From Gemmatimonadales bacterium (GTDB taxonomy: Bacteria > Gemmatimonadota > Gemmatimonadetes > Gemmatimonadales > GWC2-71-9), in contig DATDFP010000282.1 in assembly GCA_036522535.1 (NCBI GenBank), forward strand, positions 1 through 34,164: DNA of 34,164 nt, given 5' to 3'. The translations under genes and the position numbers were made by a program. This document shows, piece by piece, positions 23,212-34,135 of the stretch; the stretch's first letter is position 1; each line of letters opens with the position of its first letter. Under the pieces are notes generated by a model. That model saw nothing but the letters and a program-made list of their open reading frames with translations, was not told where the DNA came from and searched no databases.

Positions 23212-23394
23212 GAGTGCGGAGTGCGGAATGCGGAATGGAGAATCTGCTGAAATGCGGAATGCGGAATGCGGAATGCGGAATGTCAGTGCGAGGGTCGAAC
23301 TCCGAGGTCGCGCTTCGACGCCATCCGATCAATTCCGCACTCCGCACTCCGCACTCCGCATTTGTGGGCATTCCGCACTCCGCATTCCGCATTT
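23212..23394. repeat. ORF-less heptamer-array hairpin: (GAGTGCG/GAATGCG)n ... 47-bp core ... (ATTCCGC/ACTCCGC)n, double-armed
   Basis: Left arrays are at 23212-23238 and 23250-23282. Right arrays are at 23330-23363 and 23370-23394. The junctions resemble those of the 4HB cassette at 30.7-31.15 kb (GGAATGCGGAATGT... and ...TCAATTCCGCA). Confidence 0.75.
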
Positions 23395-23410: not shown

Positions 23411-23483
23411 CGGGCCCTTAGCTCAGCGGTTAGAGCAGCGGACTCATAATCCGTCGGTCCCAGGTTCAAATCCTGGAGGGCCC
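23411..23483 (+). tRNA. tRNA with CAU anticodon, elongator type; probably tRNA-Ile2 (lysidine-modified) rather than tRNA-Met
   Basis: It folds by hand as a 73-nt cloverleaf: acceptor GGGCCCT/AGGGCCC, D arm GCTC-AGCGGTTA-GAGC, anticodon arm GCGGA-CTCATAA-TCCGT, T arm CCAGG-TTCAAAT-CCTGG. The 1:72 pair is G-C, so it is not an initiator. It closely resembles my recollection of E. coli ileX. No encoded CCA. Confidence 0.9.
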
Positions 23484-23504
23484 ACGGACTAAAGGCTAGA
23501 AAGC

Positions 23505-23665
23505 AGGGAACGGTAACAGACGCACAGACGCACAGGGGAAAATACTAGACGCACAGACGCGGTAGACGCACAGACGCACCGGCACAGCGTCACCCGGACG
23601 GTCCTGTTCACTACGACCTGTTCACCCCTGCTGCGTCTATGCGTCTGTTGCTGTTCACCGTTCTC
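23505..23665. repeat. Imperfect palindromic element built from CAGACGCA octamer arrays and inverted TGCGTCT / CTGTTCAC copies
   Basis: AGACGC(A/G) occurs 6 times between 23516 and 23578. TGCGTCT occurs twice (23631-23647) and CTGTTCAC three times. The outer arms GAACGGTAACAG (23507-23518) and CTGTTCACCGTTC (23651-23663) are complementary apart from 1 inserted nt. The element occupies most of the tRNA-tRNA spacer. Confidence 0.55.
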
Positions 23666-23676
23666 CAGCCGTTCAG

Positions 23677-23750
23677 GGGTGGTTAGCTCAGCTGGTTAGA
23701 GCGCCGGTCTCACATACCGGAGGTCACAGGTTCGAGTCCTGTACCGCCCA
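23677..23750 (+). tRNA. tRNA-Val (anticodon CAC)
   Basis: It folds by hand as a 74-nt cloverleaf: acceptor GGGTGGT/ACCGCCC with one G-U pair, anticodon arm CCGGT-CTCACAT-ACCGG, T arm ACAGG-TTCGAGT-CCTGT. No encoded CCA. Confidence 0.9.
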
Positions 23751-23933: not shown

Positions 23934-24974
23934 TCAGAGCAGCCCGCCCCTCCGGAGCTTCCCCGGAGGGTCGTAGCGCGTGTCGTGCGCGGCGAGCACT
24001 TCGGCGGGTGAGACCGTGGCCACGCCCAATTTCCCGACCTCGATGCCGGCCGCGTAGTTCGCGAGCCGCGCTGCCTCACGCACGGATGCGCCGGCGCCGA
24101 GCGCCGTACCCACCCATGCCGTCACCGTGTCACCCGCGCCCGACACGTCGAACACCTCCCGGGCGATCGCGGGGATGCGGCTGATCTCCTTGTCCTTGGT
24201 GACCAGCACCATGCCCTCGGCGCCGAGGGTGAGGAGCAAGTTGTCCACGCCCAGCTTGTCGAGCGATTGCGGGAGCGCGTCCGGACGGTCGATGTCGAGC
24301 GCCGCGCCCATGGCCCGCTCCAGCTCGCGGCGGTTGGGCTTGAACACGGTCGCCCCGCGGTAAGCGAAGAAGTGCTTGAACTTCGGGTCCACCACGACCG
24401 GAATGCCGCGCTTCTTGGCCAGCGTCATCGCCCGCTCGATCACCGCCGCGGTCAGGGTGCCCTTGTTGTAGTCCTCCAACACGAGCGCGTCGGCGTCGGC
24501 GGTCGCCCGCTCCAGCTCGGCCTGGAGCTGCGCTTCGGCGCGCTCCGGCACCGGATCTTCCACCTCTTCGTCGATGCGCACCACCTGCTGGCCACGCGCG
24601 GTGACCCGGGTCTTGGACGTCGTGGGCCGTGCCGCTACGACGACGAGGTGGCTGTCGGTGAGCCGGCTCTGAGCCAGCTCGCCGCGAAACGAGTCGCCGC
24701 GCGCATCGTCTCCGATCACCGCGACGAGCCGGCACTCGGCGCCAATCGCCGCCACATTGGCTGCCACGTTCGCCGCGCCGCCGAGCGCGTGGCGGCGCGC
24801 CCGGACCGAGACGACGGGAACCGGCGCCTCGGGCGAGATCCGGTCCGCGTCGCCCGAGAGATAGATGTCGAGCATCGCGTCGCCCACGACGACGATGCGC
24901 CGGTCGACCATCTTCGCCACCAGGCTCTCTAAATGCTCCCGGGTCAAGCGGGGGTCGGAAGAGAGAGCGGTCAC
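23934..24974 (-). CDS. hldA: D-glycero-beta-D-manno-heptose-7-phosphate kinase (RfaE domain I type, PfkB family)
   Basis: IVVVGDAMLDIYLSGDADRISPEAPVPVVSV...ALGGAANVAANVAAIGAECRLVAVIGDD is the RfaE-domain-I signature. The C-terminal motif DVSGAGDTV is the PfkB signature. The GTG start overlaps the upstream stop (GTGA). Confidence 0.85.
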   Translation of the reverse strand: MTALSSDPRLTREHLESLVAKMVDRRIVVVGDAMLDIYLSGDADRISPEAPVPVVSVRARRHALGGAANVAANVAAIGAECRLVAVIGDDARGDSFRGELAQSRLTDSHLVVVAARPTTSKTRVTARGQQVVRIDEEVEDPVPERAEAQLQAELERATADADALVLEDYNKGTLTAAVIERAMTLAKKRGIPVVVDPKFKHFFAYRGATVFKPNRRELERAMGAALDIDRPDALPQSLDKLGVDNLLLTLGAEGMVLVTKDKEISRIPAIAREVFDVSGAGDTVTAWVGTALGAGASVREAARLANYAAGIEVGKLGVATVSPAEVLAAHDTRYDPPGKLRRGGLL

Positions 24975-26497
24975 GGCAGCCCTCCTGTCGTCGAAAACCG
25001 GTAGCTCAGCGCCGCCCGCCCCTCGAACCGGGTGCGCGTGTCGCCCGCGAGGTGCTGGAAGTTGCTGATCCGATGGACGCCCGCGTCGAACGTGACCACC
25101 ACGCGGGCACCGGCGCTGTAGTCGCCCGACACCGCGGCCCGCAGCGTCCGCTCGACGGTCCCCTGGAAGATGGGCGGAGTCGTGGGATAGTTGGGGACGG
25201 CCGGATGGGGCAGGCGCGGATCTCCCTCGCCCTGCCGCAACAGCGTCAGCTCCGGCGCGAGCAGCAACCCGGGCGCCGCCAGCACGCTGAGCTTGAGCGT
25301 GGCCTGATCGTAGTCGGCGAAATTGCGGCCGGTGCCGAGGAAATGGTAGAGCGGCACCTCGAGGTTGTCTTCGTTCCGGTAGGTGAGGTTCGCCACCCGC
25401 GTGTAGAACAGCGTCCAGGCGGCCGATCCGCCCCCCAAGGAACCCCTGGCACCCGCGGTGAGGGCATAGCTCGAGGGCTTCAGATCGGTCGCCGTCTTGC
25501 GGTCGATCTCGATGTCGTCGAGCATCAGCTGCGCGAACAGGCTCACGGCTCCGTCCCGCTCCACGTCAAGCCCGACGAAGCTGTTGACGTCCGTGCCGGT
25601 ATTCAGCTGTTCGAAATATCCGACATTCAGGATGTTCAAATACCACGGCTCGAATTGGCGCCCGGGTCCCGAGAGCACCGAGCCTTCCCACACCGCGCCG
25701 CTCCACCGATCTGAAGGTCTGATCCAGAGACGATGTTGCGACATGTAGCGGTGCACCGTGGCGCCGGTCGAGTCGGTGCGATCGTCGAGCTGCGTGGCGA
25801 TCGCCTGAAGCTGCACGCGCGACGTGCCCACCGCGAGCGCGAGGTGGTCCAGCCCGTAGGGATCGTCGGATAGCAACAAGCCTTGAATGACGCTCGGTCC
25901 CCAGTTCCGGTCCAGTCTTCCGAAAAACAGCTCGCCGAACCGCCACTGGGCGCTCACGTAGCTCTCGGCCGTGCGGCCTGCGATCACGCGGTTCTTTCTG
26001 CCGAACCAATCCGGGTCGTACTTGAGCCGGGTGTCAAAGTACGTGTGGGTGACCGCAACGACCGGTCCAGTCAGCAGGGTGAGCGCCAGGCCCCCATCCA
26101 CGAATCCGTGCTTGGGTCCCGACTGCCTCGGACCGCTCGAGTCCAACGCGGCCAGTGGGTCGCGCCGGGTGTATGTGGCGGCCGCAACCCCGACGTCGCC
26201 GACGATCTGGTAGCTCGGGGCCTCTCGTTCGAGCGCGAACTCCCGCAGCAGCCGGCGCACCAGCGCGCTTCCAGCGCTACCGACCGTGAGCGTGTCGACG
26301 TCCCGGAGCGCGCGGACCAGGTCGGCCTGCCGGAGCGGACGCGTGAGCGGTGTGGGGTCGTGCAGTATGCCGGCTGCGATCAGGTGCTCGATGTACGGCA
26401 TGGCCCAGTGCTGGAGCGGAACGTAGGGTGAGGCCGCTTGGGCCGCGAGAACGGCGCCTGAGAGGAACGGGATCGCCACGACGACCCTCGCCCTCAC
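24971..26497 (-). CDS. Capsule assembly Wzi-family outer-membrane protein (tentative)
   Basis: A signal peptide is followed by SPYVPLQHWAMPYIEHLIAAGILHDPTPLTRPLRQADLVRAL, a Wzi-like N-terminal helical motif. A roughly 450-aa stretch rich in alternating beta-strand patterns follows. The GTG start overlaps the upstream stop. Confidence 0.6.
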   Translation of the reverse strand: MRARVVVAIPFLSGAVLAAQAASPYVPLQHWAMPYIEHLIAAGILHDPTPLTRPLRQADLVRALRDVDTLTVGSAGSALVRRLLREFALEREAPSYQIVGDVGVAAATYTRRDPLAALDSSGPRQSGPKHGFVDGGLALTLLTGPVVAVTHTYFDTRLKYDPDWFGRKNRVIAGRTAESYVSAQWRFGELFFGRLDRNWGPSVIQGLLLSDDPYGLDHLALAVGTSRVQLQAIATQLDDRTDSTGATVHRYMSQHRLWIRPSDRWSGAVWEGSVLSGPGRQFEPWYLNILNVGYFEQLNTGTDVNSFVGLDVERDGAVSLFAQLMLDDIEIDRKTATDLKPSSYALTAGARGSLGGGSAAWTLFYTRVANLTYRNEDNLEVPLYHFLGTGRNFADYDQATLKLSVLAAPGLLLAPELTLLRQGEGDPRLPHPAVPNYPTTPPIFQGTVERTLRAAVSGDYSAGARVVVTFDAGVHRISNFQHLAGDTRTRFEGRAALSYRFSTTGGLP

Positions 26498-28011
26498 GGC
26501 AGAGAGCCTTCGCCGTGGAGCCGGAAATCGAAGCCCAGCGAGCCCACCCAGCGAGTGTCACTGGCGCCGGTCACATGGGCCGCGTTGTGGATCAGGTGAA
26601 CACCGCCGTTTGCCACGAGTCCCCAGCTCGGGTGCTGCCAGTTCGCGCCAAGCGCCAGGCGCAGCGTGCGCTCCACCACGCCCTGAAAGATCGTTGCGGT
26701 CGTCGGGTAGTCGGGGACCAGGGGATGTGGCAGGCGCGGGTCCCCCTGGCCCTGGCGCAGCACAGTGGCTTCGGGCTGGAGCAGGAGACCCGACTGCGTG
26801 AGAAGGGTCAGCCTGGCGGTTGCCTGGTCATAGTCGTCGAAGTTCCGGCCCGTGCCGAGGAGGTGAAGCAGCGGGACCTGGAGGTTGTCCTCGTTACGGT
26901 ACGTCAGATTCGCGACTTGCGTATAGAAGGCGGTGAGCGTCGCTGTTTCCGCGAGACGGCCCTTCACGCCCGCCGTGAACGCATAGCTGGTCGGCTTCAA
27001 GTCGGCGGCGGTCTTGCGGGATATCTGAATGTCGTCGAGCATGAATTGGCCGAACACGCTCACGTTGCCCCGACGCTCGAACTCACCGCCAACGAAGAAG
27101 TTCGCGTTTGCTCCGGCGCTCCCCGCGCGCAGCACTCCCAGGGTTGCGGCGTTCAGGTACCACGGCTCAAGCTGTCGCCCGACGCCGGACAGCACCGAGC
27201 CTTGCCAGAGCGCCAACGTCCAGCGTCCCTCGGGCCGGATCCACAGCCGGTGTTGTATCATGTAGCGGTTCACCGGCGCACCGGTGGAATCGGTCCGCGT
27301 ATCGAGCTGAGAGACGTATACCTGTAGTTTGATTCGCGGCATCCCGACCGTCAGCGCGAGGTGGTCGAGGCTGTACGGATTGTCGGAGAGCAGGACGCCC
27401 TGGATCCCGCTAGGTCCCCAGTTCCGGTCGAGGATCCCGAAGAACAGCTCTCCGAAACGCCACTGCCCGCTGACGTAACCTTCGGCAAACCGGGTCGCGT
27501 TATCGGAGGTGCCAAACCAGTCGGGGTCGAGCTCCAGCCGGGTATCGACGGTAGGATGGCTCACGCCCACGAACGGCCCGAACGCGAAGAGGAGCTGTCC
27601 CCCGGCATTCGCGAAGACGTGATTGCCAGACTGCCTTGGCGGCGTGCCTCTTCCCAGTTCCAACGGGTCGCGCACGGTGTAGGTGGCCGCGGCCAATCCG
27701 CCGTTCAGATCGACGCGGTAGCGCGGCCCGTGAATGTCGGGCTTGAACTCGGCGTGGAGGCGGCGGATCGTAGCCGTGGTAGCCTCGCCCAGGTTGGACG
27801 TATCGACCGCTTCCAGCGCGCGGACCAGGTCCGCCTGCCTCAGGGGCCGCGTCAGGGGCGTCGGGTCTTCGAGCACGCCGGCCGAGATCAGCTGTTCGAC
27901 GTAAGGCATCGCCCAGTGCGCGAGCGGCACATAGGGCGACGCCTCCTGACCTGCGAGGCGGTGGGGGTCGAGGACGCATGTCGCGAGGAGGAACGCAACC
28001 CGGGCGCGCAT
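26494..28011 (-). CDS. Capsule assembly Wzi-family outer-membrane protein, tandem paralogue (tentative)
   Basis: The 794-aa ORF was trimmed to ATG 28011 (MRARVAFLLATCVL...). It is collinear with the neighbour over its full length, for example SPYVPLAHWAMPYVEQLISAGVLEDPTPLTRPLRQADLVRAL and LRQGQGDPRLPHPLVPDYPTT against LRQGEGDPRLPHPAVPNYPTT. Confidence 0.6.
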   Translation of the reverse strand: MRARVAFLLATCVLDPHRLAGQEASPYVPLAHWAMPYVEQLISAGVLEDPTPLTRPLRQADLVRALEAVDTSNLGEATTATIRRLHAEFKPDIHGPRYRVDLNGGLAAATYTVRDPLELGRGTPPRQSGNHVFANAGGQLLFAFGPFVGVSHPTVDTRLELDPDWFGTSDNATRFAEGYVSGQWRFGELFFGILDRNWGPSGIQGVLLSDNPYSLDHLALTVGMPRIKLQVYVSQLDTRTDSTGAPVNRYMIQHRLWIRPEGRWTLALWQGSVLSGVGRQLEPWYLNAATLGVLRAGSAGANANFFVGGEFERRGNVSVFGQFMLDDIQISRKTAADLKPTSYAFTAGVKGRLAETATLTAFYTQVANLTYRNEDNLQVPLLHLLGTGRNFDDYDQATARLTLLTQSGLLLQPEATVLRQGQGDPRLPHPLVPDYPTTATIFQGVVERTLRLALGANWQHPSWGLVANGGVHLIHNAAHVTGASDTRWVGSLGFDFRLHGEGSLP

Positions 28012-28962: not shown

Positions 28963-29993
28963 GGGTCGAGCAAGCGCGGGGCTCGCTCGTCGAGACCTGG
29001 CACGATGTCCACGTCGCCGTCGTGGACTCGACCGGTCGCCTGCTCGCCCGGTCCGGAGACCCCGACCTCGTCACCTACTGGCGCTCGGCCGCGAAGCCCT
29101 TCCAGGCCCTGCCGCTCGTCGATGATGGAGTGGTGGACCGGTTCGGCATCAGCACTCAGGAGTTGGCACTGTGTTGCGCCTCGCACTCGAGCGAGCCGGA
29201 TCAGATAGCGCTGGTGCGGAACCTGCTCGCCAGGATCGGCTGCAGCGAGCGGGATCTCCTGTGCGGTCCGCATCCGCCGCTATCCGAGCGCGTGGCCTCG
29301 GACTACGCGACCCGCGGCGTGCGGCTCACGGCCGTGTACTCGAACTGCTCGGGGAAGCACGCCGGAATGCTCGCGCTGGCGCGGCACCACGGCTGGCCGA
29401 CGGAGTTCTACACGCGCCTCGAGCACCCGGTGCAACAACGCTGCCTCGCCGAGGTCAGCCGCTGGACGGAAGTCCCGCAGAACGACATCCGGACGGCGGT
29501 TGATGGCTGCGGCGTCGCGTGCTACGGGCTGCCCCTGCGGAATATGGCGCTGGCGTATGCGAGGCTGGCAAACGCGGAACGCGGAGCGCTGAACGCGGAA
29601 CTTCAAAGGGAGCGCCCTGACACGCAGGACCCTGCACGACAGTTCCGCGTTCCGCCCTCCACGTTCCGCGTTGTTGAAGCGATGCTGCGCCATCCCGAGC
29701 TCGTCGCCGGGGAAGGGCGTGCGTGCACCGAGATCATGCGGGCTCATCCCGGGCGCGTGATCGCGAAGGTGGGTGCCGAAGGCGTCTATTGCGCGCTGCT
29801 CAAGCGGGAAGGCTTGGGCGTGGCGCTCAAGGTCGCGGACGGCCATGGCGTTGCGGCGGCGCTCGCCCTGGCGGCCGTGTTGGAGGAGCTCGGCCTCCGA
29901 CCCCGCCCGGCCTCGCTCGCCGCGCGGCCCAGCGTGAACACGCGGGGCGAGACGGTCGGCGAGCTGCGTGTAAATGGGAGACTGGAGAAATGA
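28959..29993 (+). CDS. Asparaginase II family (PF06089-like) protein carrying a repeat-derived in-frame insertion
   Basis: RSAAKPFQALPLV, CASHSSEP, NCSGKHAGMLAL, AVDGCGVACYGLPL, HPELVAGEGRACTEIM and AKVGAEGVYC match the Rhizobium-type asparaginase II family. Its ATG overlaps the EamA stop (ATGA). Confidence 0.8.
   Translation: MRVEQARGSLVETWHDVHVAVVDSTGRLLARSGDPDLVTYWRSAAKPFQALPLVDDGVVDRFGISTQELALCCASHSSEPDQIALVRNLLARIGCSERDLLCGPHPPLSERVASDYATRGVRLTAVYSNCSGKHAGMLALARHHGWPTEFYTRLEHPVQQRCLAEVSRWTEVPQNDIRTAVDGCGVACYGLPLRNMALAYARLANAERGALNAELQRERPDTQDPARQFRVPPSTFRVVEAMLRHPELVAGEGRACTEIMRAHPGRVIAKVGAEGVYCALLKREGLGVALKVADGHGVAAALALAAVLEELGLRPRPASLAARPSVNTRGETVGELRVNGRLEK
29570..29671. repeat. Heptamer-array hairpin (GAACGCG units) inside the asparaginase-family CDS: 31-bp arms (28/31 complementary) around a 40-bp loop
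   Basis: The left arm is AACGCGGAACGCGGAGCGCTGAACGCGGAAC (29570-29600). The right arm is GTTCCGCGTTCCGCCCTCCACGTTCCGCGTT (29641-29671). The total is 102 bp, or 34 codons. Confidence 0.7.
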
Positions 29994-30027
29994 AAGGATG
30001 CGGCAAGGGTGCCCGGGGGCGCGTAAT

Positions 30028-30693
30028 ATGACCAGGCGCCGCTCGCCCGAGAATGGCGTTCCCGCGCCTCTCGACGCCGTGACCGCCGCCCTCGTTCGGG
30101 TGGCGGCCGCGCTCGCCGAGGGAAAGCTCGACGTGCTGCGGACCCGGCTCGCCGCCGCGCGGAGCGCGGGAGTGCCCGATCTCTGGGTTGACGAACTGTT
30201 GCTCCAGAGCCTGCTCGTGGTCGGCTACCCGCTGACGCTGGTGGCGTTCGCCGCCTGGCGCGAGGTGGCGGGACCGCTCCACGTGGCCGGGAACGGCGAG
30301 GGAGAAGAGCTGGCGCATGAGGACTGGTCGTCGTGGGCGAAGCGCGGGGCCGCGGTGTGCGCGGAGGTCTACGGGCGCGCCTACCACAAGCTGCTCCTCA
30401 ATCTCCGGTCGCTGCATCCGGCGCTCGAGGACCTCGTGCTGGTAGACGCCTATGGCAAGTTGATCGCCCGACCGGGCCTCGATCTCAAGCGGCGCGAGCT
30501 GTGCACCGTGGCGGCGATCGCGGTGCTCGGCACGGCGCGGCAGCTGCACTCGCACCTGCGCGGCGCGCTCAACAGCGGAGCGACGCGCGCCGAGGTCGAG
30601 GCGGTGCTGGAGCTGATCGACGCCGATCTCGACCCCGCACACCGGCGCAGCGCGCGGGAGCAGTGGGAGGATGTGAAGGGGCGGAGGGTATGA
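30028..30693 (+). CDS. Carboxymuconolactone decarboxylase (CMD/AhpD-like) family protein
   Basis: GLDLKRRELCTVAAIAVLGTARQLHSHLRGALNSGATRAEVEAVLELI is a typical CMD-domain pattern. The ORF was trimmed to ATG 30028. Confidence 0.75.
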   Translation: MTRRRSPENGVPAPLDAVTAALVRVAAALAEGKLDVLRTRLAAARSAGVPDLWVDELLLQSLLVVGYPLTLVAFAAWREVAGPLHVAGNGEGEELAHEDWSSWAKRGAAVCAEVYGRAYHKLLLNLRSLHPALEDLVLVDAYGKLIARPGLDLKRRELCTVAAIAVLGTARQLHSHLRGALNSGATRAEVEAVLELIDADLDPAHRRSAREQWEDVKGRRV

Positions 30694-31156
30694 TTGTCGA
30701 TTGCGGATTGCGGAACTACCAAGTGCGGAATGGGGAATTCGGAATGCGGAATGTAAAGGGGAGGTCATGTCCCAGGTCGACTTGAAGGATCGTACTCGGG
30801 TATTTGCGTCGGCGATCATCGGGTTGGTGGAGGATCTCCCTCGAGGTCGGAGTGCCGATGTGATCGGCACGCAGTTGCTTCGCGCCGGGACCTCCGTTGC
30901 CGCCAACTATCGCTCCGCATGCCGAGCGAGATCGCGCAAGGAGTTCGTTGCGAAGATGGGAGTCGTTGAAGAGGAGTCCGACGAGGCGCAGTTCTGGCTG
31001 GATCTCTTAGTGGAACGGGGACTCGGCGACGCCGAGCGGGTGTCCTCATTGCGGGAAGAAGCTCGCCAGCTGGTTGCAATTGCGGTGTCGTCGATTCGGA
31101 CGGCGCGCGGAACTCCCCGTTCAATTCCGCATTCCACATTCCGCATTCCGCATTAG
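30694..31156 (+). mobile_element. Four-helix-bundle gene cassette bracketed by inverted heptamer arrays (IVS-like module)
   Basis: The left array is at 30699-30753 (GATTGCG x2 ... GAATGGG GAATTCG GAATGCG GAATG). The right array is at 31122-31154 (CAATTCCGCATTCCACATTCCGCATTCCGCATT). The cassette starts 1 nt after the CMD stop and ends 15 nt before the obg ATG. Mobility is inferred, not shown. Confidence 0.55.
30767..31156 (+). CDS. Four-helix-bundle protein (23S rRNA intervening-sequence protein / Avd-like family, TIGR02436/PF05635-like)
   Basis: FASAIIGLVEDLPRGRSADVIGTQLLRAGTSVAANYRSACRARSRKEFVAKMGVVEEESDEAQFWLDLL is the family hallmark. GGAGG precedes ATG 30767. The last roughly 12 codons (IPHSTFRIPH) are read from the right repeat array. 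Confidence 0.85.
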   Translation: MSQVDLKDRTRVFASAIIGLVEDLPRGRSADVIGTQLLRAGTSVAANYRSACRARSRKEFVAKMGVVEEESDEAQFWLDLLVERGLGDAERVSSLREEARQLVAIAVSSIRTARGTPRSIPHSTFRIPH

Positions 31157-32212
<1,056 letters not shown>

Positions 32213-32213
32213 G

Positions 32214-33356
32214 GTGAGCCGGTTGGAACGGGACGAGCTGGCGGCCTACCTCGCCCTCGCTGAAGTCCCGGGGATCGGCCCCGCGCGGCTGCGCACGCTC
32301 GTCGCGGCGTTCGAGAGCGCTGCCGGCGCGCTGCACGCTCCCCACGGCGCGATCGCGGCGCTGCCCGGTCTGAGCCGTGCCGCCGCGACGGCGATTCGGG
32401 CGTGCTCGCCCAAGTCGGGGCACGACATTCTCGAGCGGCTCGAGCGGCTGGGCGCGAGCTTGCTGCTGCCCGACGACCCCGCCTTCCCACCGCTGCTGCG
32501 CGAGATCTCCGAGCCGCCCGTGCTGCTCTACGTCTGGGGAGATGCCGCGCAGCTCAACCGGCCGGCTGTGGGCGTCGTGGGAAGCCGCGACCACACCGCG
32601 TACGGCGCGGAGGCGGCGCGTCTGCTCGCGAGCGGCGTCGCGCGCGTTGGGGTGGTCGTCGTGAGCGGGATGGCCCGGGGGATAGACGCGATCGCTCACG
32701 CCGCCGCGCTCGACGCCGGCGGTCCGTCGGTCGGCGTTCTCGCGAACGGCTTCGGCGTGATTTATCCCGCGGCGAACCGGCCGTTGTATGAGCGCATGAT
32801 CGCGCACGGCTGTCTCATCACCGAGCTGCCGCCGGGAGAGCGCCCCCACGCGGGTGCGTTTCCGCGACGCAACCGCCTCATCTCGGGTGTCGCCGGCGTG
32901 ACGGTCGTGGTGGAGGCGGCGGCCAACTCGGGCGCGCTCATCACCGCCGACTGCGCACTCGATCAAGGCCGCACCGTGCTCGCCGTTCCCGGGCCGATCA
33001 CGAGCCCCACCTCCGTCGGCTGCAACAAGCTGATCCAGCAAGGAGCGAAGCCTGCCCTGTCGGCGGGGGACGTGCTGGAGGAGCTGGGGCTGCCGCGGTC
33101 CGGTCACGACGAGCCGGGCGCGGAAGCCCCCGGGCACCACTCGGCGGTCGGTCGGCTGGCGACACCCGCGCCGCCGCCGGATCTGAGCACCTTGCAGCGC
33201 TCCCTCTGGGACCTCCTGACCGCCGAGCCGAAGCACGTGGACGCCCTGGTCGCGGCCGCGGGGGCCGAGACCGGGCAGGTCCTGACGGCGCTAACGGAGC
33301 TGGAGTTGAAGGGGCTCGTGAAGCAGGAAGCGGGGATGCGGTTTTGCTTGGGGTAA
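32214..33356 (+). CDS. dprA: DNA-processing protein DprA
   Basis: VGSRDHTAYGAEAARLLA...VVVSGMARGIDAIAHAAAL...GVLANGFGVIYPAANRPLYERM...AFPRRNRLISG. A C-terminal winged-helix-like tail is present. The GTG start follows the obg stop by 1 nt. Confidence 0.9.
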   Translation: MSRLERDELAAYLALAEVPGIGPARLRTLVAAFESAAGALHAPHGAIAALPGLSRAAATAIRACSPKSGHDILERLERLGASLLLPDDPAFPPLLREISEPPVLLYVWGDAAQLNRPAVGVVGSRDHTAYGAEAARLLASGVARVGVVVVSGMARGIDAIAHAAALDAGGPSVGVLANGFGVIYPAANRPLYERMIAHGCLITELPPGERPHAGAFPRRNRLISGVAGVTVVVEAAANSGALITADCALDQGRTVLAVPGPITSPTSVGCNKLIQQGAKPALSAGDVLEELGLPRSGHDEPGAEAPGHHSAVGRLATPAPPPDLSTLQRSLWDLLTAEPKHVDALVAAAGAETGQVLTALTELELKGLVKQEAGMRFCLG

Positions 33357-33379
33357 GGGAGGGTCGCATATGTGCCGGG

Positions 33380-33636
33380 TTGAACTCCGGGCGCATGGAC
33401 CCGGGGTGGGTCCGCCCATGGTTCTTTGAACCCCGGGGCATGGCCCCGGGGTTTGGTCTGCCCGTACCTGCTTGAACCCCGGGGCACGGCCCCGGGGTTA
33501 GTCCGCTCTGCGGCCGGTGTCGGTGGGCGTGACCTGGACTTGGGCAGTTCTGTGTGCTTGAACCCCGGGGCATGGCCCCGGGGGGTAGGTCTGTCCGTAC
33601 CTGCTTGAACCCCGGGGCACCGCCCCGGGGTTAACC
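33380..33636 (+). repeat. REP cluster: five direct copies of TTGAACCCCGGGGCA(T/C)(G/C)GCCCCGGGGT hairpins (first copy degenerate)
   Basis: The copies start at about 33380 (degenerate), 33426, 33472, 33558 and 33605. The units 33426-33500 and 33558-33633 are a duplicated two-REP composite. Confidence 0.8.
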
Positions 33637-33659
33637 TACCCCTAACCGACTGCGGGGTA

Positions 33660-34058
33660 ATGGGAGGTTCAGGTCACAAGGCATGCGGGCTCTACGCGCA
33701 CGTCACGTGGCACACGTGGCGGCGCGTACCGCAGGTCCGGAAGCCGGACGTGCCGGTGATAGTCGACACCGTGCTTGATGCGGCACGTCGCTGGGCCGTG
33801 CGCGTGCACGCCCAGGCCGTACTGTCGGACCACGTACACGTCGTCGTGAGTTACCCGCCGCACGTGGCGCTGGCGTCGTTCATTCGACACGCGAAGTCCG
33901 AGTCCGCCCGACGGATCAACGTGATGCGACTTGACGCGCAACGCTTGCGCTGGTGTCGCGGCTACTATGTCGGGTCCCTCTCACGGAGCGACGTGACCCC
34001 GGCGCGGTCTTACCTTGCACGGCAGTTTCAGCGACATCCCGATCGCATACCCGAATAA
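33660..34058 (+). CDS. IS200/IS605-type Y1 HUH transposase, REP-associated (RAYT-like)
   Basis: The HUH motif is SDHVHVVVSY and the catalytic Tyr motif is RSYLARQ (the Y-x-x-x-Q type). The 132-aa size fits. REP hairpins lie on both sides. Confidence 0.8.
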   Translation: MGGSGHKACGLYAHVTWHTWRRVPQVRKPDVPVIVDTVLDAARRWAVRVHAQAVLSDHVHVVVSYPPHVALASFIRHAKSESARRINVMRLDAQRLRWCRGYYVGSLSRSDVTPARSYLARQFQRHPDRIPE

Positions 34059-34068
34059 TTCAGGGTGG

Positions 34069-34135
34069 GTTAACCCCGGGGCGGTGCCCCGGGGTTAACG
34101 CGGGGCGGACGCGCGGCGCCATGCCCCGGGGTTAA
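34069..34135 (+). repeat. REP copies downstream of the RAYT gene (GTTAACCCCGGGGCGGTGCCCCGGGGTTAAC plus a partial copy ...CATGCCCCGGGGTTAAC)
   Basis: Read directly. The first copy is a near-perfect 31-bp palindrome at 34069-34099. The second may be cut by the window end. Confidence 0.7.

Follow-up and report, generated by a model that had tools for sequence, protein, structure and literature searches.

A four-helix-bundle gene enclosed by inverted heptamer arrays at the CMD-obg junction of a Gemmatimonadales bacterium

Introduction

What is a gene of the family encoded inside 23S rRNA intervening sequences (IVSs) doing between two protein-coding genes, and what are the short tandem repeats that enclose it? 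The question is raised by a locus of a Gemmatimonadales bacterium in which a four-helix-bundle (4HB) gene lies between a CMD-family gene and obg. Three things that bear on it have for decades been known apart from one another, none with an assigned function: the ORF of 23S IVSs, 4HB genes scattered through operons, CRISPR-cas and restriction loci, and the STRR hairpins of cyanobacteria. A preliminary description, made from the sequence alone, had read the locus as an IVS-like gene cassette in an mRNA context. We analyzed the window, which is the whole stretch of 34,164 nt, together with related loci and with 4HB genes of other phyla.

Results

Anatomy of the cassette

The whole cassette occupies 30694-31156, and its parts and neighbors are as follows.

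29974-30693, + strand: CMD-family gene, upstream neighbor (PF02627, 2.3e-19); its stop TGA at 30691-30693 touches the first repeat
30694-30716, + strand: remnant of an outer array, of a different dialect (GATTGCG x 2.3) and lacking a 3′ partner (TRF 30699-30714)
30719-30753, + strand: inner 5′ arm, with CCAAG ahead of (TGCGGAA) x 4.3 (TRF 30724-30753; inverted repeat)
30754-30766, + strand: Shine-Dalgarno (SD) segment TAAAGGGGAGGTC, inside the long stem, its partner being 31110-31121 (inverted repeat I1; fold)
30767-31156, + strand: 4HB gene, 129 aa, ATG start (TIGR02436, 6.8e-21; PF05635)
31110-31121, + strand: anti-SD segment GAACTCCCCGTT, within the 3′ end of the ORF (inverted repeat I1)
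31122-31154, + strand: 3′ arm, (ATTCCGC) x 4.4 (TRF 31124-31154; inverted repeat)
31157-31171, + strand: 15-nt spacer (GGGGTGGGGATGTTCG region) ahead of obg (ORF coordinates)
31172-32212, + strand: obg (GTPase ObgE/CgtA), downstream neighbor (PF01018, 1.9e-55; NCBIfam Obg)

The CMD stop is the starting point of the 5′ array, GGGGAGG at 30758-30764 precedes the 4HB ATG, about 11 final 4HB codons come from the 3′ array with the stop TAG (31154-31156) in its last repeat, and the obg ATG follows at 31172. The preliminary description of the 129-aa gene, its ribosome binding site and family, the array positions, the junction spacing and the last codons read from the repeat was right in every checkable detail. 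An upstream TTG start (30701, 151 aa) was considered and rejected because the extension translates nothing but the 5′ array; homologs called in the same way begin MRNAECGIRNAE. The window contains no rRNA, its Rfam matches being two tRNAs only, and the cassette is not in a 23S rRNA helix. At gathering and E-value thresholds, Rfam has no family for the arms or hairpins. No promoter or terminator was detected in a scan of 29900-31400, which was limited to sigma-70-type promoter-like sites and is therefore weak evidence.

The two arms of inverted repeat I1 (30719-30766 and 31110-31157) measure 48 nt and are 81% complementary, and the stem that they form takes in the Shine-Dalgarno of the 4HB gene, paired with CTCCCC. 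TRF, pairing and folding all identified the GCGGAAT/ATTCCGC runs as inverted heptamer arms, as had been proposed. The minimum free energy fold of the full cassette is closed by the arms (z -2.9), so that the ORF is indeed a gene in a stem. Seven arrays in the window have a period of 7, the other periods between 5 and 12 having 0-2 each, and the heptamer motif was observed 23 times where 0.9 occurrences were expected.

States and alleles of the CMD-obg junction

We compared the junction in relatives of the window, namely 62 related soil Gemmatimonadales loci, all of them metagenome contigs. The cassette is present in 54, whereas 5 are empty, 2 have an ORF-less hairpin and 1 has a solo array; the comparison of empty with filled sites that the preliminary description had called for thus yielded empty, solo-array, hairpin-only and filled states. 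In the five empty loci the CMD stop overlaps the obg ATG. The junction reads TGATG or TAATG when empty and TGA-array...array-ATG when filled, with no target-site duplication readable between the two. In 52 of 56 cassettes the 4HB stop and the obg start overlap, leaving no spacer, while the window keeps its 15 nt.

The cassettes fall into ten clusters of 4HB identity, the five largest of which hold 5-16 members and have one heptamer dialect each, mirrored in both arms. The dialect GCGGAAT is common to cluster 3, and CTCCCC (the anti-SD) is kept in clusters 2, 3 and 4. Among 43 distinct cassettes the mean stem is 35 nt long with 92% Watson-Crick pairs, and arms pair more strongly with partners of their own cluster (-69 kcal/mol) than across clusters (-53 kcal/mol). 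Mismatches in the arms, read on the transcribed strand, comprise 20 G·U and 32 A·C (p = 0.13); there is no G·U excess, and selection on RNA rather than DNA is therefore not indicated. The nesting of an outer and an inner array also occurs in relatives, where older arrays persist outside newer ones.

Alleles at this junction have been exchanged. Divergent alleles are 64% identical in 4HB versus 98% in CMD, CMD and 4HB identity are correlated at r = 0.31 over 1711 pairs, and more than one allele class is found in nine host groups. The flanks of swapped alleles are 98-100% identical, and 100% identical as far as the CMD stop, with breakpoints that differ in position inside the flanks. Site-specific transposition was rejected as the source of these swaps because the breakpoints vary, and judging from these alignments the exchange seems to have occurred by homologous recombination within the flanks. 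Such swaps require no function encoded by the element.

The 4HB gene is compositionally foreign: its GC3 is 0.68 versus 0.84-0.88 in the neighboring genes, which bears out the less GC-biased codon usage first noticed, GC drops to 0.59-0.62 within the cassette, and 4HB GC3 is below that of the neighbors in 58 of 58 loci. The gene is also under purifying selection (dN/dS 0.18). One may ask, then, whether 4HB and stem are a domesticated host module, a long-standing regulator of CMD-obg (acting on mRNA stability or coupling, for example) whose diversity reflects ordinary recombination and which is not selfish. The orthologous locus of four distant MAGs has the cassette in all of them, with 4HB conservation equal to that of the neighbors, and this, the selective constraint, the conserved stop/start overlap with obg and allele swaps of the homologous recombination type would all be expected of such a module. 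However, empty sites with a functional overlapping junction exist inside the clade, the foreign GC3 is universal among the loci compared, pseudogenised cassette copies and ORF-less derivatives are found, and the same package sits in unrelated operons of many phyla (hsdS-hsdR, csx2-cas1, RND pump genes). We therefore consider a host module unlikely, albeit the least unlikely of the alternatives.

The cassette is old at the CMD-obg junction and its protein is constrained, which also fits a gene beneficial to the host.

A gene-plus-array unit in many phyla

We next take the cross-phylum census, which covered 43 unrelated 4HB genes from plasmids, genomes and viral contigs in two sets. Period-7 arrays were present on both flanks of 24 of the 43 genes (12/21 and 12/22) and on at least one flank of 33 (16/21 and 17/22), against a background density of 0.09-0.27 arrays per kb; the bracketing of 4HB genes by repeat arrays, put forward as a check on the cassette, is thus common, and about a fifth of 4HB genes are without clear arrays. 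The package of gene plus repeats occurs in at least nine bacterial phyla. Besides Gemmatimonadota and Cyanobacteria, arrays were found at loci of Acidobacteriota, Planctomycetota, Bacteroidota, Chloroflexota, Spirochaetota, Bacillota and Binatia. The cyanobacterial 4HB genes examined are flanked by heptamer arrays, and in 50 kb of a Chlorohelix plasmid the sole two period-7 arrays flank the 4HB gene. Across phyla, the heptamer dialect tracks the tree of the 4HB protein. A phage collection gave one match, an unverified fecal scaffold with bacterial-looking neighbors and without heptamer arrays. A scan of genome contigs with a single protein returned 9 loci only and was swamped by repeat-derived patterns. 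Arrays and gene are conserved as one unit in many phyla. None of the observations named beforehand as refuting the arrangement (armless cassettes at this site in relatives, other 4HB genes of the genome without flanking arrays, arms that do not pair) was encountered.

ORF-less hairpins and a neighboring transposase

Two heptamer hairpins without a 4HB gene lie elsewhere in the window, and many more are found in loci L006-L009.

23212-23393, no strand assigned: ORF-less heptamer hairpin with GCGGAAT/GCGGAGT arms and a 50-nt loop (arms 60 nt, 82% complementary; fold z -8.3)
29571-29672, + strand: in-frame heptamer hairpin in the GCGGAAC dialect, inside the asparaginase II gene (arms 32 nt, 91% complementary; fold z -6.1)

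Complementary arms and folds confirm both of the ORF-less derivatives that had been pointed out at 23.2 kb and, in frame, at 29.6 kb. The first is placed between the start of a glycosyltransferase gene and tRNA-Met, and its loop retains inner parts of the cassette, namely the SD-like and the 3′ segment. Since ORF-less hairpins share these inner segments, they are most simply read from their sequences as deletion derivatives of the cassette. The second adds about 31 aa to asparaginase II; among orthologs it is missing in L007, reduced to a single arm in L009 and present in other dialects in close relatives. The idea of a mobile or copy-and-decay element gains from the range of site states, the allele swaps, the nested old arrays, the asparaginase ortholog without hairpin, the retained inner segments and the pseudogenes.

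We also considered whether one protein serves all hairpins of a genome. L006 and L008 agreed with this, but a larger set based on the asparaginase hairpin did not: in the window, L029 and L031 its dialect differs from that of the cassette at the obg site. A match of dialect between hairpin and cassette was therefore dropped as evidence for recognition in trans.

An IS200-like Y1_Tnp gene lies at 33660-34059, 2.5 kb from the cassette, and has its own REP hairpins (a REP/RAYT example at 33352-34104). The earlier statement that no transposase, integrase or reverse transcriptase is adjacent accordingly holds for reverse transcriptase among the ORFs scanned (see below) and has to be qualified for transposases, the repeats of this one being different. 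The hairpins might in principle be mobilized in trans by a Y1/IS200-type, RAYT-like transposase, with the 4HB gene as cargo caught in the loop. The Y1 gene with its REP hairpins is syntenic in several relatives, in the 50 kb of Chlorohelix plasmid the 4HB gene has an IS200/IS605 tnpA some 20 kb away, and the hairpins have inserted at varied places, one of them inside a gene. Yet the RAYT repeats (GAACCCCGGGGC...) are unrelated to the heptamers, the gene enclosed by heptamer arms is PF05635 and not a Y1 (HUH) transposase, most of the loci retrieved have no Y1 gene nearby, and a target-site signature was not seen. As the arrays are associated across phyla with the 4HB gene, whose tree the dialects follow, we regard mobilization by such a transposase as improbable.

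The coupling of allele and dialect invites another explanation, a conflict or addiction module in which each 4HB allele would neutralize only its own stem, preventing for example destructive cleavage or blocked translation of the essential or defence gene that follows it, and in which alleles would be kept by frequency-dependent selection. Ten 4HB clusters (five with 5-16 members) do coexist, reshuffled, in a narrow host clade, and cassettes are often found in defence operons (PMC3936711). However, in-frame ORF-less hairpins persist without a matching local cassette, and dN/dS is low rather than elevated. We give this explanation as little credence as the preceding one.

The 4HB protein and its relation to Avd

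Both family assignments are above the curated cut-offs (PF05635: 53.2 bits, cut-off 33.8, 4e-14; TIGR02436: 74.5 bits, cut-off 24, 6.8e-21). An AF2 monomer model (pLDDT 88) has four helices at residues 4-115 and a low-confidence tail. Foldseek matched it to 2RLD (BT_0352, TM 0.87), 2GSC (Xcc0516, TM 0.84) and 4DWL (Avd, TM 0.81), and also to 8UB7; phmmer related the protein to 2rld at 1.8e-15, and PDB entries 2RLD and 2GSC have five chains each. The family of IVS proteins and the kinship to Avd had been correctly recognized at the outset, with Avd the weaker match in fold.

Avd, the accessory protein of diversity-generating retroelements (DGRs), has a homologous four-helix-bundle fold and assembles as a pentamer, which binds both the RNA and the reverse transcriptase of the DGR (4DWL, 8UB7). 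In both sequence and structure the window protein is nearer to the stand-alone branch (2RLD, 2GSC). A search for a DGR reverse transcriptase and TR/VR pairs, which had been recommended, came back empty: Pfam scans of 23 window ORFs gave no RVT domain, the remaining ORFs of at least 220 aa being outside the scan, and no TR/VR-like direct repeat pair was present in the 34 kb. That the gene is an orphan Avd accessory gene of a DGR can be all but dismissed, even though it shares the fold and no Pfam family is linked to DGRs more often than PF05635 (PMC10053308), as the scanned ORFs include no reverse transcriptase and the 34 kb no template/variable repeat pair, the nearest structures are the stand-alone BT_0352 and Xcc0516, and heptamer arrays are foreign to DGRs.

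Discussion

Taken as a whole, we favor, with reasonable but not strong confidence, the reading of this locus as a passenger cassette of the IVS type, one that represents STRR-like heptamer hairpins in a form with an ORF and lies exactly at the stop/start junction of CMD and obg. Cassette, CMD and obg would probably form one transcript, in which the paired arms make the insertion tolerable, hide the Shine-Dalgarno and limit translation of 4HB. Given that the 4HB frame runs across the 3′ arm to a stop that, in most relatives, lies on the obg start codon, we propose that ribosomes open the stem; on balance, they would thereby restore the translational coupling of CMD and obg that exists at empty sites. 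By analogy with the IVS of Coxiella, the stem might well be a substrate of RNase III, although we would not quite count on it. With a similar degree of reserve, the 4HB protein, predicted to be a pentamer, may recognize its own heptamer arrays, which would explain the persistence of dialects over deep divergence. Both the processing by RNase III and the binding of repeats by 4HB are inferred. Between genomes, movement of the cassette at CMD-obg quite probably proceeds through homologous recombination in the flanks.

A bolder reading, which we think has some chance of being correct but is rather unlikely, is that 4HB genes and heptamer arrays are one ancient self-perpetuating system across bacteria, in which the pentamer reads its own dialect (as RNA or ssDNA) and so maintains and homogenizes arrays and seeds them at new transcribed sites. 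The targets proposed for it would range from rRNA, with the classical IVSs, and RNase P RNA to operon junctions and even coding sequences. Were this true, it would constitute a class of mobile elements without transposase, integrase or reverse transcriptase, and two puzzles of about 30 years' standing, the STRR repeats and the IVS ORF, would be explained together.

The gene-plus-array package as a unit seems not to have been described before; our literature search found no paper on it, an absence that is not proof of novelty. The evidence indicates that the IVS ORF, the scattered 4HB genes and the STRR hairpins all belong to, or are left over from, a single kind of cassette. A testable idea follows, namely that the 4HB protein reads its own heptamers, as does a warning that PF05635 genes inside defence operons may be passengers and not components of them. 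The CMD-obg junction, where ten clusters of alleles occur alongside sites that are empty or decayed, provides a natural system for such studies and shows how an insertion can be harmless ahead of an essential gene.

Comparison with known systems

Several known elements share part of this organization. REP/REPIN elements with their RAYT genes likewise have a small gene between inverted short repeats and gene-less hairpins scattered elsewhere, but their repeat is a single imperfect palindrome whereas those of the cassette are tandem heptamer arrays. To our knowledge, the 4HB helical bundle has no nuclease or transposase motif. Rickettsia palindromic elements are hairpin-forming short repeats that lie in frame in protein genes and are tolerated as extra peptide, and the asparaginase II insert resembles them in its in-frame placement of a hairpin; they differ, as far as we know, in having neither tandem heptamers nor an associated gene.

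The ORF-bearing 23S rRNA IVSs of Coxiella burnetii and Leptospira (PF05635, 'S23p') encode the same protein family, likewise with the ORF inside an inverted-repeat stem. In Coxiella, tandem heptamers (GACAGAT) lie just 5′ of the ORF and vary in copy number between strains, RNase III cuts at the first heptamer, and the authors of that study concluded that the IVS protein may not be made in vivo (PMC4990558). The window cassette shares the tandem heptamers directly 5′ of the ORF. However, 23S IVSs sit in helix 25 or 45 of the rRNA, whereas the neighbors of the window cassette are protein-coding genes, in an mRNA context, and, unlike in the 23S IVSs, its 4HB frame continues through the 3′ arm, ending in most relatives at the start codon of the next gene.

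The STRRs of cyanobacteria are tandem 7-nt units that form hairpins, for instance between the co-transcribed hupS and hupL, with function unknown (PMC2670836), and STRR heptamers are also reported to occur inside the RNase P RNA gene (Vioque, 1997). Like the arms of the cassette, they are inverted, hairpin-capable arrays in transcribed intergenic regions. STRRs have been described as gene-less and cyanobacterial; the arrays reported here are not confined to (heterocystous) cyanobacteria, occurring in a Gemmatimonadales host and in at least eight phyla besides Gemmatimonadota, and they form the arms of a 4HB cassette or what remains of one without its ORF.

The heptamer-bounded cassette and its ORF-less counterparts

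The feature at 30694-31156 is real: a gene for a four-helix-bundle protein (4HB; PF05635 at 4e-14 and TIGR02436 at 6.8e-21, both above the curated cut-offs) is enclosed by inverted heptamer arrays. The ORF, ribosome-binding site, family and flanking arrays of the preliminary description agree with the coordinates and profile matches that we obtained.

23212-23393, ORF-less hairpin (heptamer arms without a 4HB gene), 60-nt arms, 50-nt loop
29571-29672, in-frame ORF-less hairpin, inside the asparaginase II gene
29974-30693, + strand, CMD-family gene, upstream neighbour of the cassette
30758-30764, + strand, Shine-Dalgarno GGGGAGG, precedes the 4HB ORF
30767-31156, + strand, 4HB ORF, ATG start, 129 aa
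31172-32212, + strand, obg, downstream neighbour of the cassette
33660-34059, + strand, IS200-like Y1 transposase gene, 132 aa, PF01797 7.5e-17

Asparaginase II and dprA are the outer neighbours beyond CMD and obg. Tandem Repeats Finder placed period-7 arrays at 30699-30714, 30724-30753 and 31124-31154, and an inverted-repeat search identified 48-nt arms (30719-30766 and 31110-31157; 81% complementarity). The predicted pairing extends beyond the heptamers, with the Shine-Dalgarno segment AAAGGGGAGGTC opposite GAACTCCCCGTT in the 3′ end of the ORF, and the arms close the full-length cassette in both the predicted MFE fold and the centroid fold. As had been proposed, the last 4HB codons are read from the repeat: the stop codon lies inside the last unit, and the obg ATG follows 15 nt further on. 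GC content drops from ~0.70-0.73 outside to 0.59-0.62 in the cassette, and the less GC-biased codon usage claimed for the gene is borne out by a GC3 of 0.68, compared with 0.84-0.88 in its neighbours.

The window contains 23 copies of the heptamer motif, compared with 0.9 expected. There are seven period-7 arrays, all belonging to three elements, while each of the other periods from 5 to 12 gives 0-2. Both ORF-less hairpins, anticipated as derivatives at 23.2 kb and, in frame, at 29.6 kb, were found, and they match the cassette beyond the arrays (register-preserving repeat families D5 and D7; pairwise alignment), with a Shine-Dalgarno-like segment after the 5′ array and CCGWTCA before the 3′ array. 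In the 23.2-kb hairpin the former is followed by a stretch matching the first 4HB codons. These common segments are the pattern expected from internal deletion of a cassette. An alignment of five asparaginase II orthologs, in which the insert is lacking in L007 (TRLAGPIL; L numbers denote fetched loci), represented by one arm in L009 and by both arms in L006, L008 and the window, indicates that the in-frame hairpin is a genuine insertion. In closer relatives the insert is always 39 aa, its heptamer being GCGGAAC, GCGGAAT, GCGGAGT, GCGGATT or others, and this unit sequence (hereafter dialect) is not tied to that of the resident cassette at obg.

Other repeats were also noted in the window. Just downstream of the 23.2-kb hairpin, a degenerate 8-nt tandem array (ACAGACGC, ~8 copies, 23516-23579) lies between tRNA-Met (23412-23485) and tRNA-Val (23677-23750). 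Two tandem paralogous genes of ~500 aa each (24971-26497 and about 26494-28000, - strand) are 72-75% identical in DNA (repeat families D1, D2 and D4); no Pfam match was obtained for the copy at 24971-26497. The Y1 transposase gene, which corrects the earlier statement that no transposase is adjacent, has inverted GC-rich hairpins, GAACCCCGGGGC(N4)GCCCCGGGGTT, on its flanks, in a region (33352-34104) that resembles a classical REP/RAYT system. Upstream of the gene the hairpin is present in four to five tandem copies, and one copy lies at 2580-2613. Y1 homologs follow dprA in L009, L036, L045, L054 and L076; 29 fetched loci contain the REP hairpin.

Occupancy of the CMD-obg junction

The exact 4HB protein is present on soil-metagenome contigs. 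The best 120 of 3274 homologs are 67-100% identical, the named ones being Gemmatimonadales, and all 120 end in ...SIPHSAFRIPH; homologs with over-called starts open with MRNAECGIRNAE. The two arrays, when translated, give these two peptides. The order asparaginase II-CMD-4HB-obg-dprA is kept in four Gemmatimonadota MAGs (identity 62-78% for 4HB, 48-59% for CMD and 74-78% for Obg), so the cassette is old at this site.

A metagenome scan with CMD protein alignment gave 80 further loci, 62 of them with both CMD and obg. A 4HB gene lies between the two in 54 (one truncated); five are empty, one has a solo array (L060), and two have an ORF-less hairpin of a clearly different heptamer, GGGGAGT/ACTCCCC, with a ~45-nt loop (L043, 2675-2781; L047, 1580-1690). 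The junction is thus polymorphic for empty, solo-array, hairpin and filled states. The empty sites are nested within filled lineages in CMD-based clustering; either loss or independent gain may explain them. In L069 (725-1210) the 4HB match is limited to the C-terminal half (residues 57-128), and obg aligned only from residue 72; this junction is rearranged or decayed.

The CMD stop and the obg ATG overlap (TGATG or TAATG) at three empty sites, L051, L075 and L095, which suggests that CMD and obg are translationally coupled when the site is empty; the other two (L073 and L081) have short spacers. The 4HB frame reads through the entire 3′ arm in 52 of 56 cassettes, with a stop that either shares the A of the obg start codon (TGATG) or lies 10 nt into obg; the window cassette departs from this by its 15-nt spacer. 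The overlap is of the same type at empty sites, and in the cassettes it is re-created by the 4HB stop. Judged from this layout, the cassette probably keeps obg translationally coupled, and ribosomes translating 4HB may open the stem. Arm mismatches showed no sense-strand G·U excess (20 G·U vs 32 A·C), so DNA hairpins, and not RNA alone, could be under selection.

Sequence statistics mark 4HB as a functional protein of foreign appearance: the median dN/dS over 571 pairwise comparisons is 0.18, and GC3 is below that of both neighbours in 58 of 58 loci (0.69 vs 0.87 and 0.88). Its AlphaFold model (pLDDT 88) has four helices at residues 4-115 and a low-confidence repeat-encoded tail; the nearest structures are BT_0352 (2RLD) and Xcc0516 (2GSC), then Avd (4DWL) and a DGR ribonucleoprotein (8UB7).

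Allele exchange at the junction

The 59 complete 4HB genes at the site form ten clusters at 80% identity, and each of the five largest has a single heptamer, mirrored between the arms.

Heptamer dialects of the five largest 4HB clusters
GCGGAAC/GTTCCGC, 16 loci
GCGGATT/AATCCGC, two clusters, 14 and 5 loci
GCGGAGT/ACTCCGC, 8 loci
GCGGAAT/ATTCCGC, 5 loci, including the window

Computed pairing of 5′ and 3′ arms is much stronger within a cluster (-69 kcal/mol) than between clusters (-53 kcal/mol). Cassettes and flanks are discordant: L024 and L027 share 98% identity in CMD but 64% in 4HB, L096 and L088 share 72% and 95%, respectively, and over 1711 pairs the two identities correlate at 0.31. More than one allele class occurs within nine host groups (CMD at least about 90% identical). 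Aligned as DNA, L024 and L027 match at 100% as far as the CMD stop and beyond about +27 of obg, but at ~63% in the tract between. In eleven such pairs the ends of the divergent tract vary, from 0-120 nt within the CMD 3′ end to 60-90 nt within obg, a pattern that points to homologous recombination in the flanks rather than precise transposition. Remnants of older arrays outside the current arms (in the window, GATTGCG units at 30694-30716; in L072 and L087, GTTCCGC units on the 3′ side of the cassette) and, in cluster 5, inner GCGGART arrays nested in outer GCGGAAC or GCGGATT arrays show that replacement inside an existing array also occurred. The earlier view of a mobile or copy-and-decay element therefore stands as regards allele exchange, absence and decayed forms; exchange at this junction is better ascribed to recombination.

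Heptamer arrays beside 4HB genes of other bacteria

Heptamer arrays, with a different unit in each, adjoin 4HB genes on genome contigs of Acidobacteriaceae, Phycisphaerales, Marivirga, Alistipes and Binatia. Arrays also occur beside sixteen plasmid 4HB genes, from Chlorohelix, Bernardetia, Planktothrix, Gloeocapsa, Pseudanabaena, Nostoc, Dolichospermum, Euhalothece, Treponema, Monoglobus, Chondrinema and Emticicia. With a strict detector, arrays were present on both flanks in 12 of 21 genes of a first set and on one or both flanks in 16 of 21 (the background being 8 arrays in 91 kb); in an independent IMG/VR viral-contig set the figures were 12/22 and 17/22 (background, 0.27 arrays per kb). 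Most misses in the first set are degenerate arrays by eye (e.g., CAGTNNN in Chondrinema); at the 4HB gene of fecal scaffold L103, neither detector nor eye found arrays. A 50-kb stretch of a Chlorohelix plasmid has just two period-7 arrays, both flanking its 4HB gene.

The cassettes usually lie co-directionally between genes of one operon, often of defence:

DUF1156-4HB-HEPN
helicase-4HB-methylase
hsdS-4HB-hsdR
csx2-4HB-cas1
RND adaptor-4HB-RND permease

Plasmid cassettes in the four defence contexts (DUF1156-HEPN, hsdS-hsdR, csx2-cas1 and helicase-methylase) were seen at L015, L018, L019, L022, L104 and L108. An earlier survey read PF05635 genes within cas loci as possibly associated functions (PMC3936711); these genes may be passengers. 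The 4HB genes of Marivirga L012 (6001-6324) and Monoglobus L022 (1501-1821) have internal stops and degenerate but recognisable flanking arrays; they are pseudogenes, copies in decay. A second 4HB gene in L007 (760-1315), 35% identical and 4.7 kb upstream of the orthologous cassette, has its own CCAATGA/TCAATGG units, which form a direct array on its upstream side and a full hairpin on its downstream side. Unrelated period-7 units, namely a GGGGATT/AATCCCC hairpin and CACCACG-type and AACACCT-type arrays, were noted in Gemmatimonadota loci at L009 8197-8266, L006 329-352 and 4621-4648, and L007 8329-8358. Several heptamer families seem to coexist in the genomes of these loci.

The closest relative of the Phycisphaerales 4HB (GCGGATT) is the Gemmatimonadales GCGGATT cluster (61% identity), one Bacteroidota gene and one cyanobacterial gene with CAGT-type units are mutually related (55%), and 4HB proteins with GATTT-type units (Chloroflexota, Cyanobacteriota and Bacteroidota) fall in one clade. 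These relationships indicate that dialect is inherited with the protein across deep divergence. The unit stays constant while 40-50% of the protein changes, for which selection on pairing alone would be insufficient. Indirectly, this indicates that the heptamer sequence as such is recognised, and the accompanying 4HB protein would be the most economical reader. Alternatively, linkage plus concerted evolution may account for the constancy of dialect.

Comparison with known systems

PF05635 has been noted as Avd-like and uncharacterised (PMC10053308), and it also occurs in CPR rRNA insertions. Full-text literature searches found no paper joining the 4HB gene and heptamer arrays as one unit; to our knowledge, their association across phyla is undescribed. 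It makes two old puzzles testable. Cyanobacterial STRRs have been described as 7-bp repeats that form hairpins, lie between hupS and hupL and have no known function (PMC2670836); STRR heptamers are also reported within the gene for RNase P RNA. In Coxiella burnetii the 23S IVS is closed by a 28-bp terminal stem, and two or three GACAGAT heptamers in tandem separate its Shine-Dalgarno from the ORF. RNase III cleaves at the first repeat, and a mobile origin was among the authors' hypotheses (PMC4990558). With the corrections made here, the IVS-like interpretation of the cassette is upheld: it is an IVS-type 4HB element that, unlike the rRNA IVSs, lies outside rRNA.
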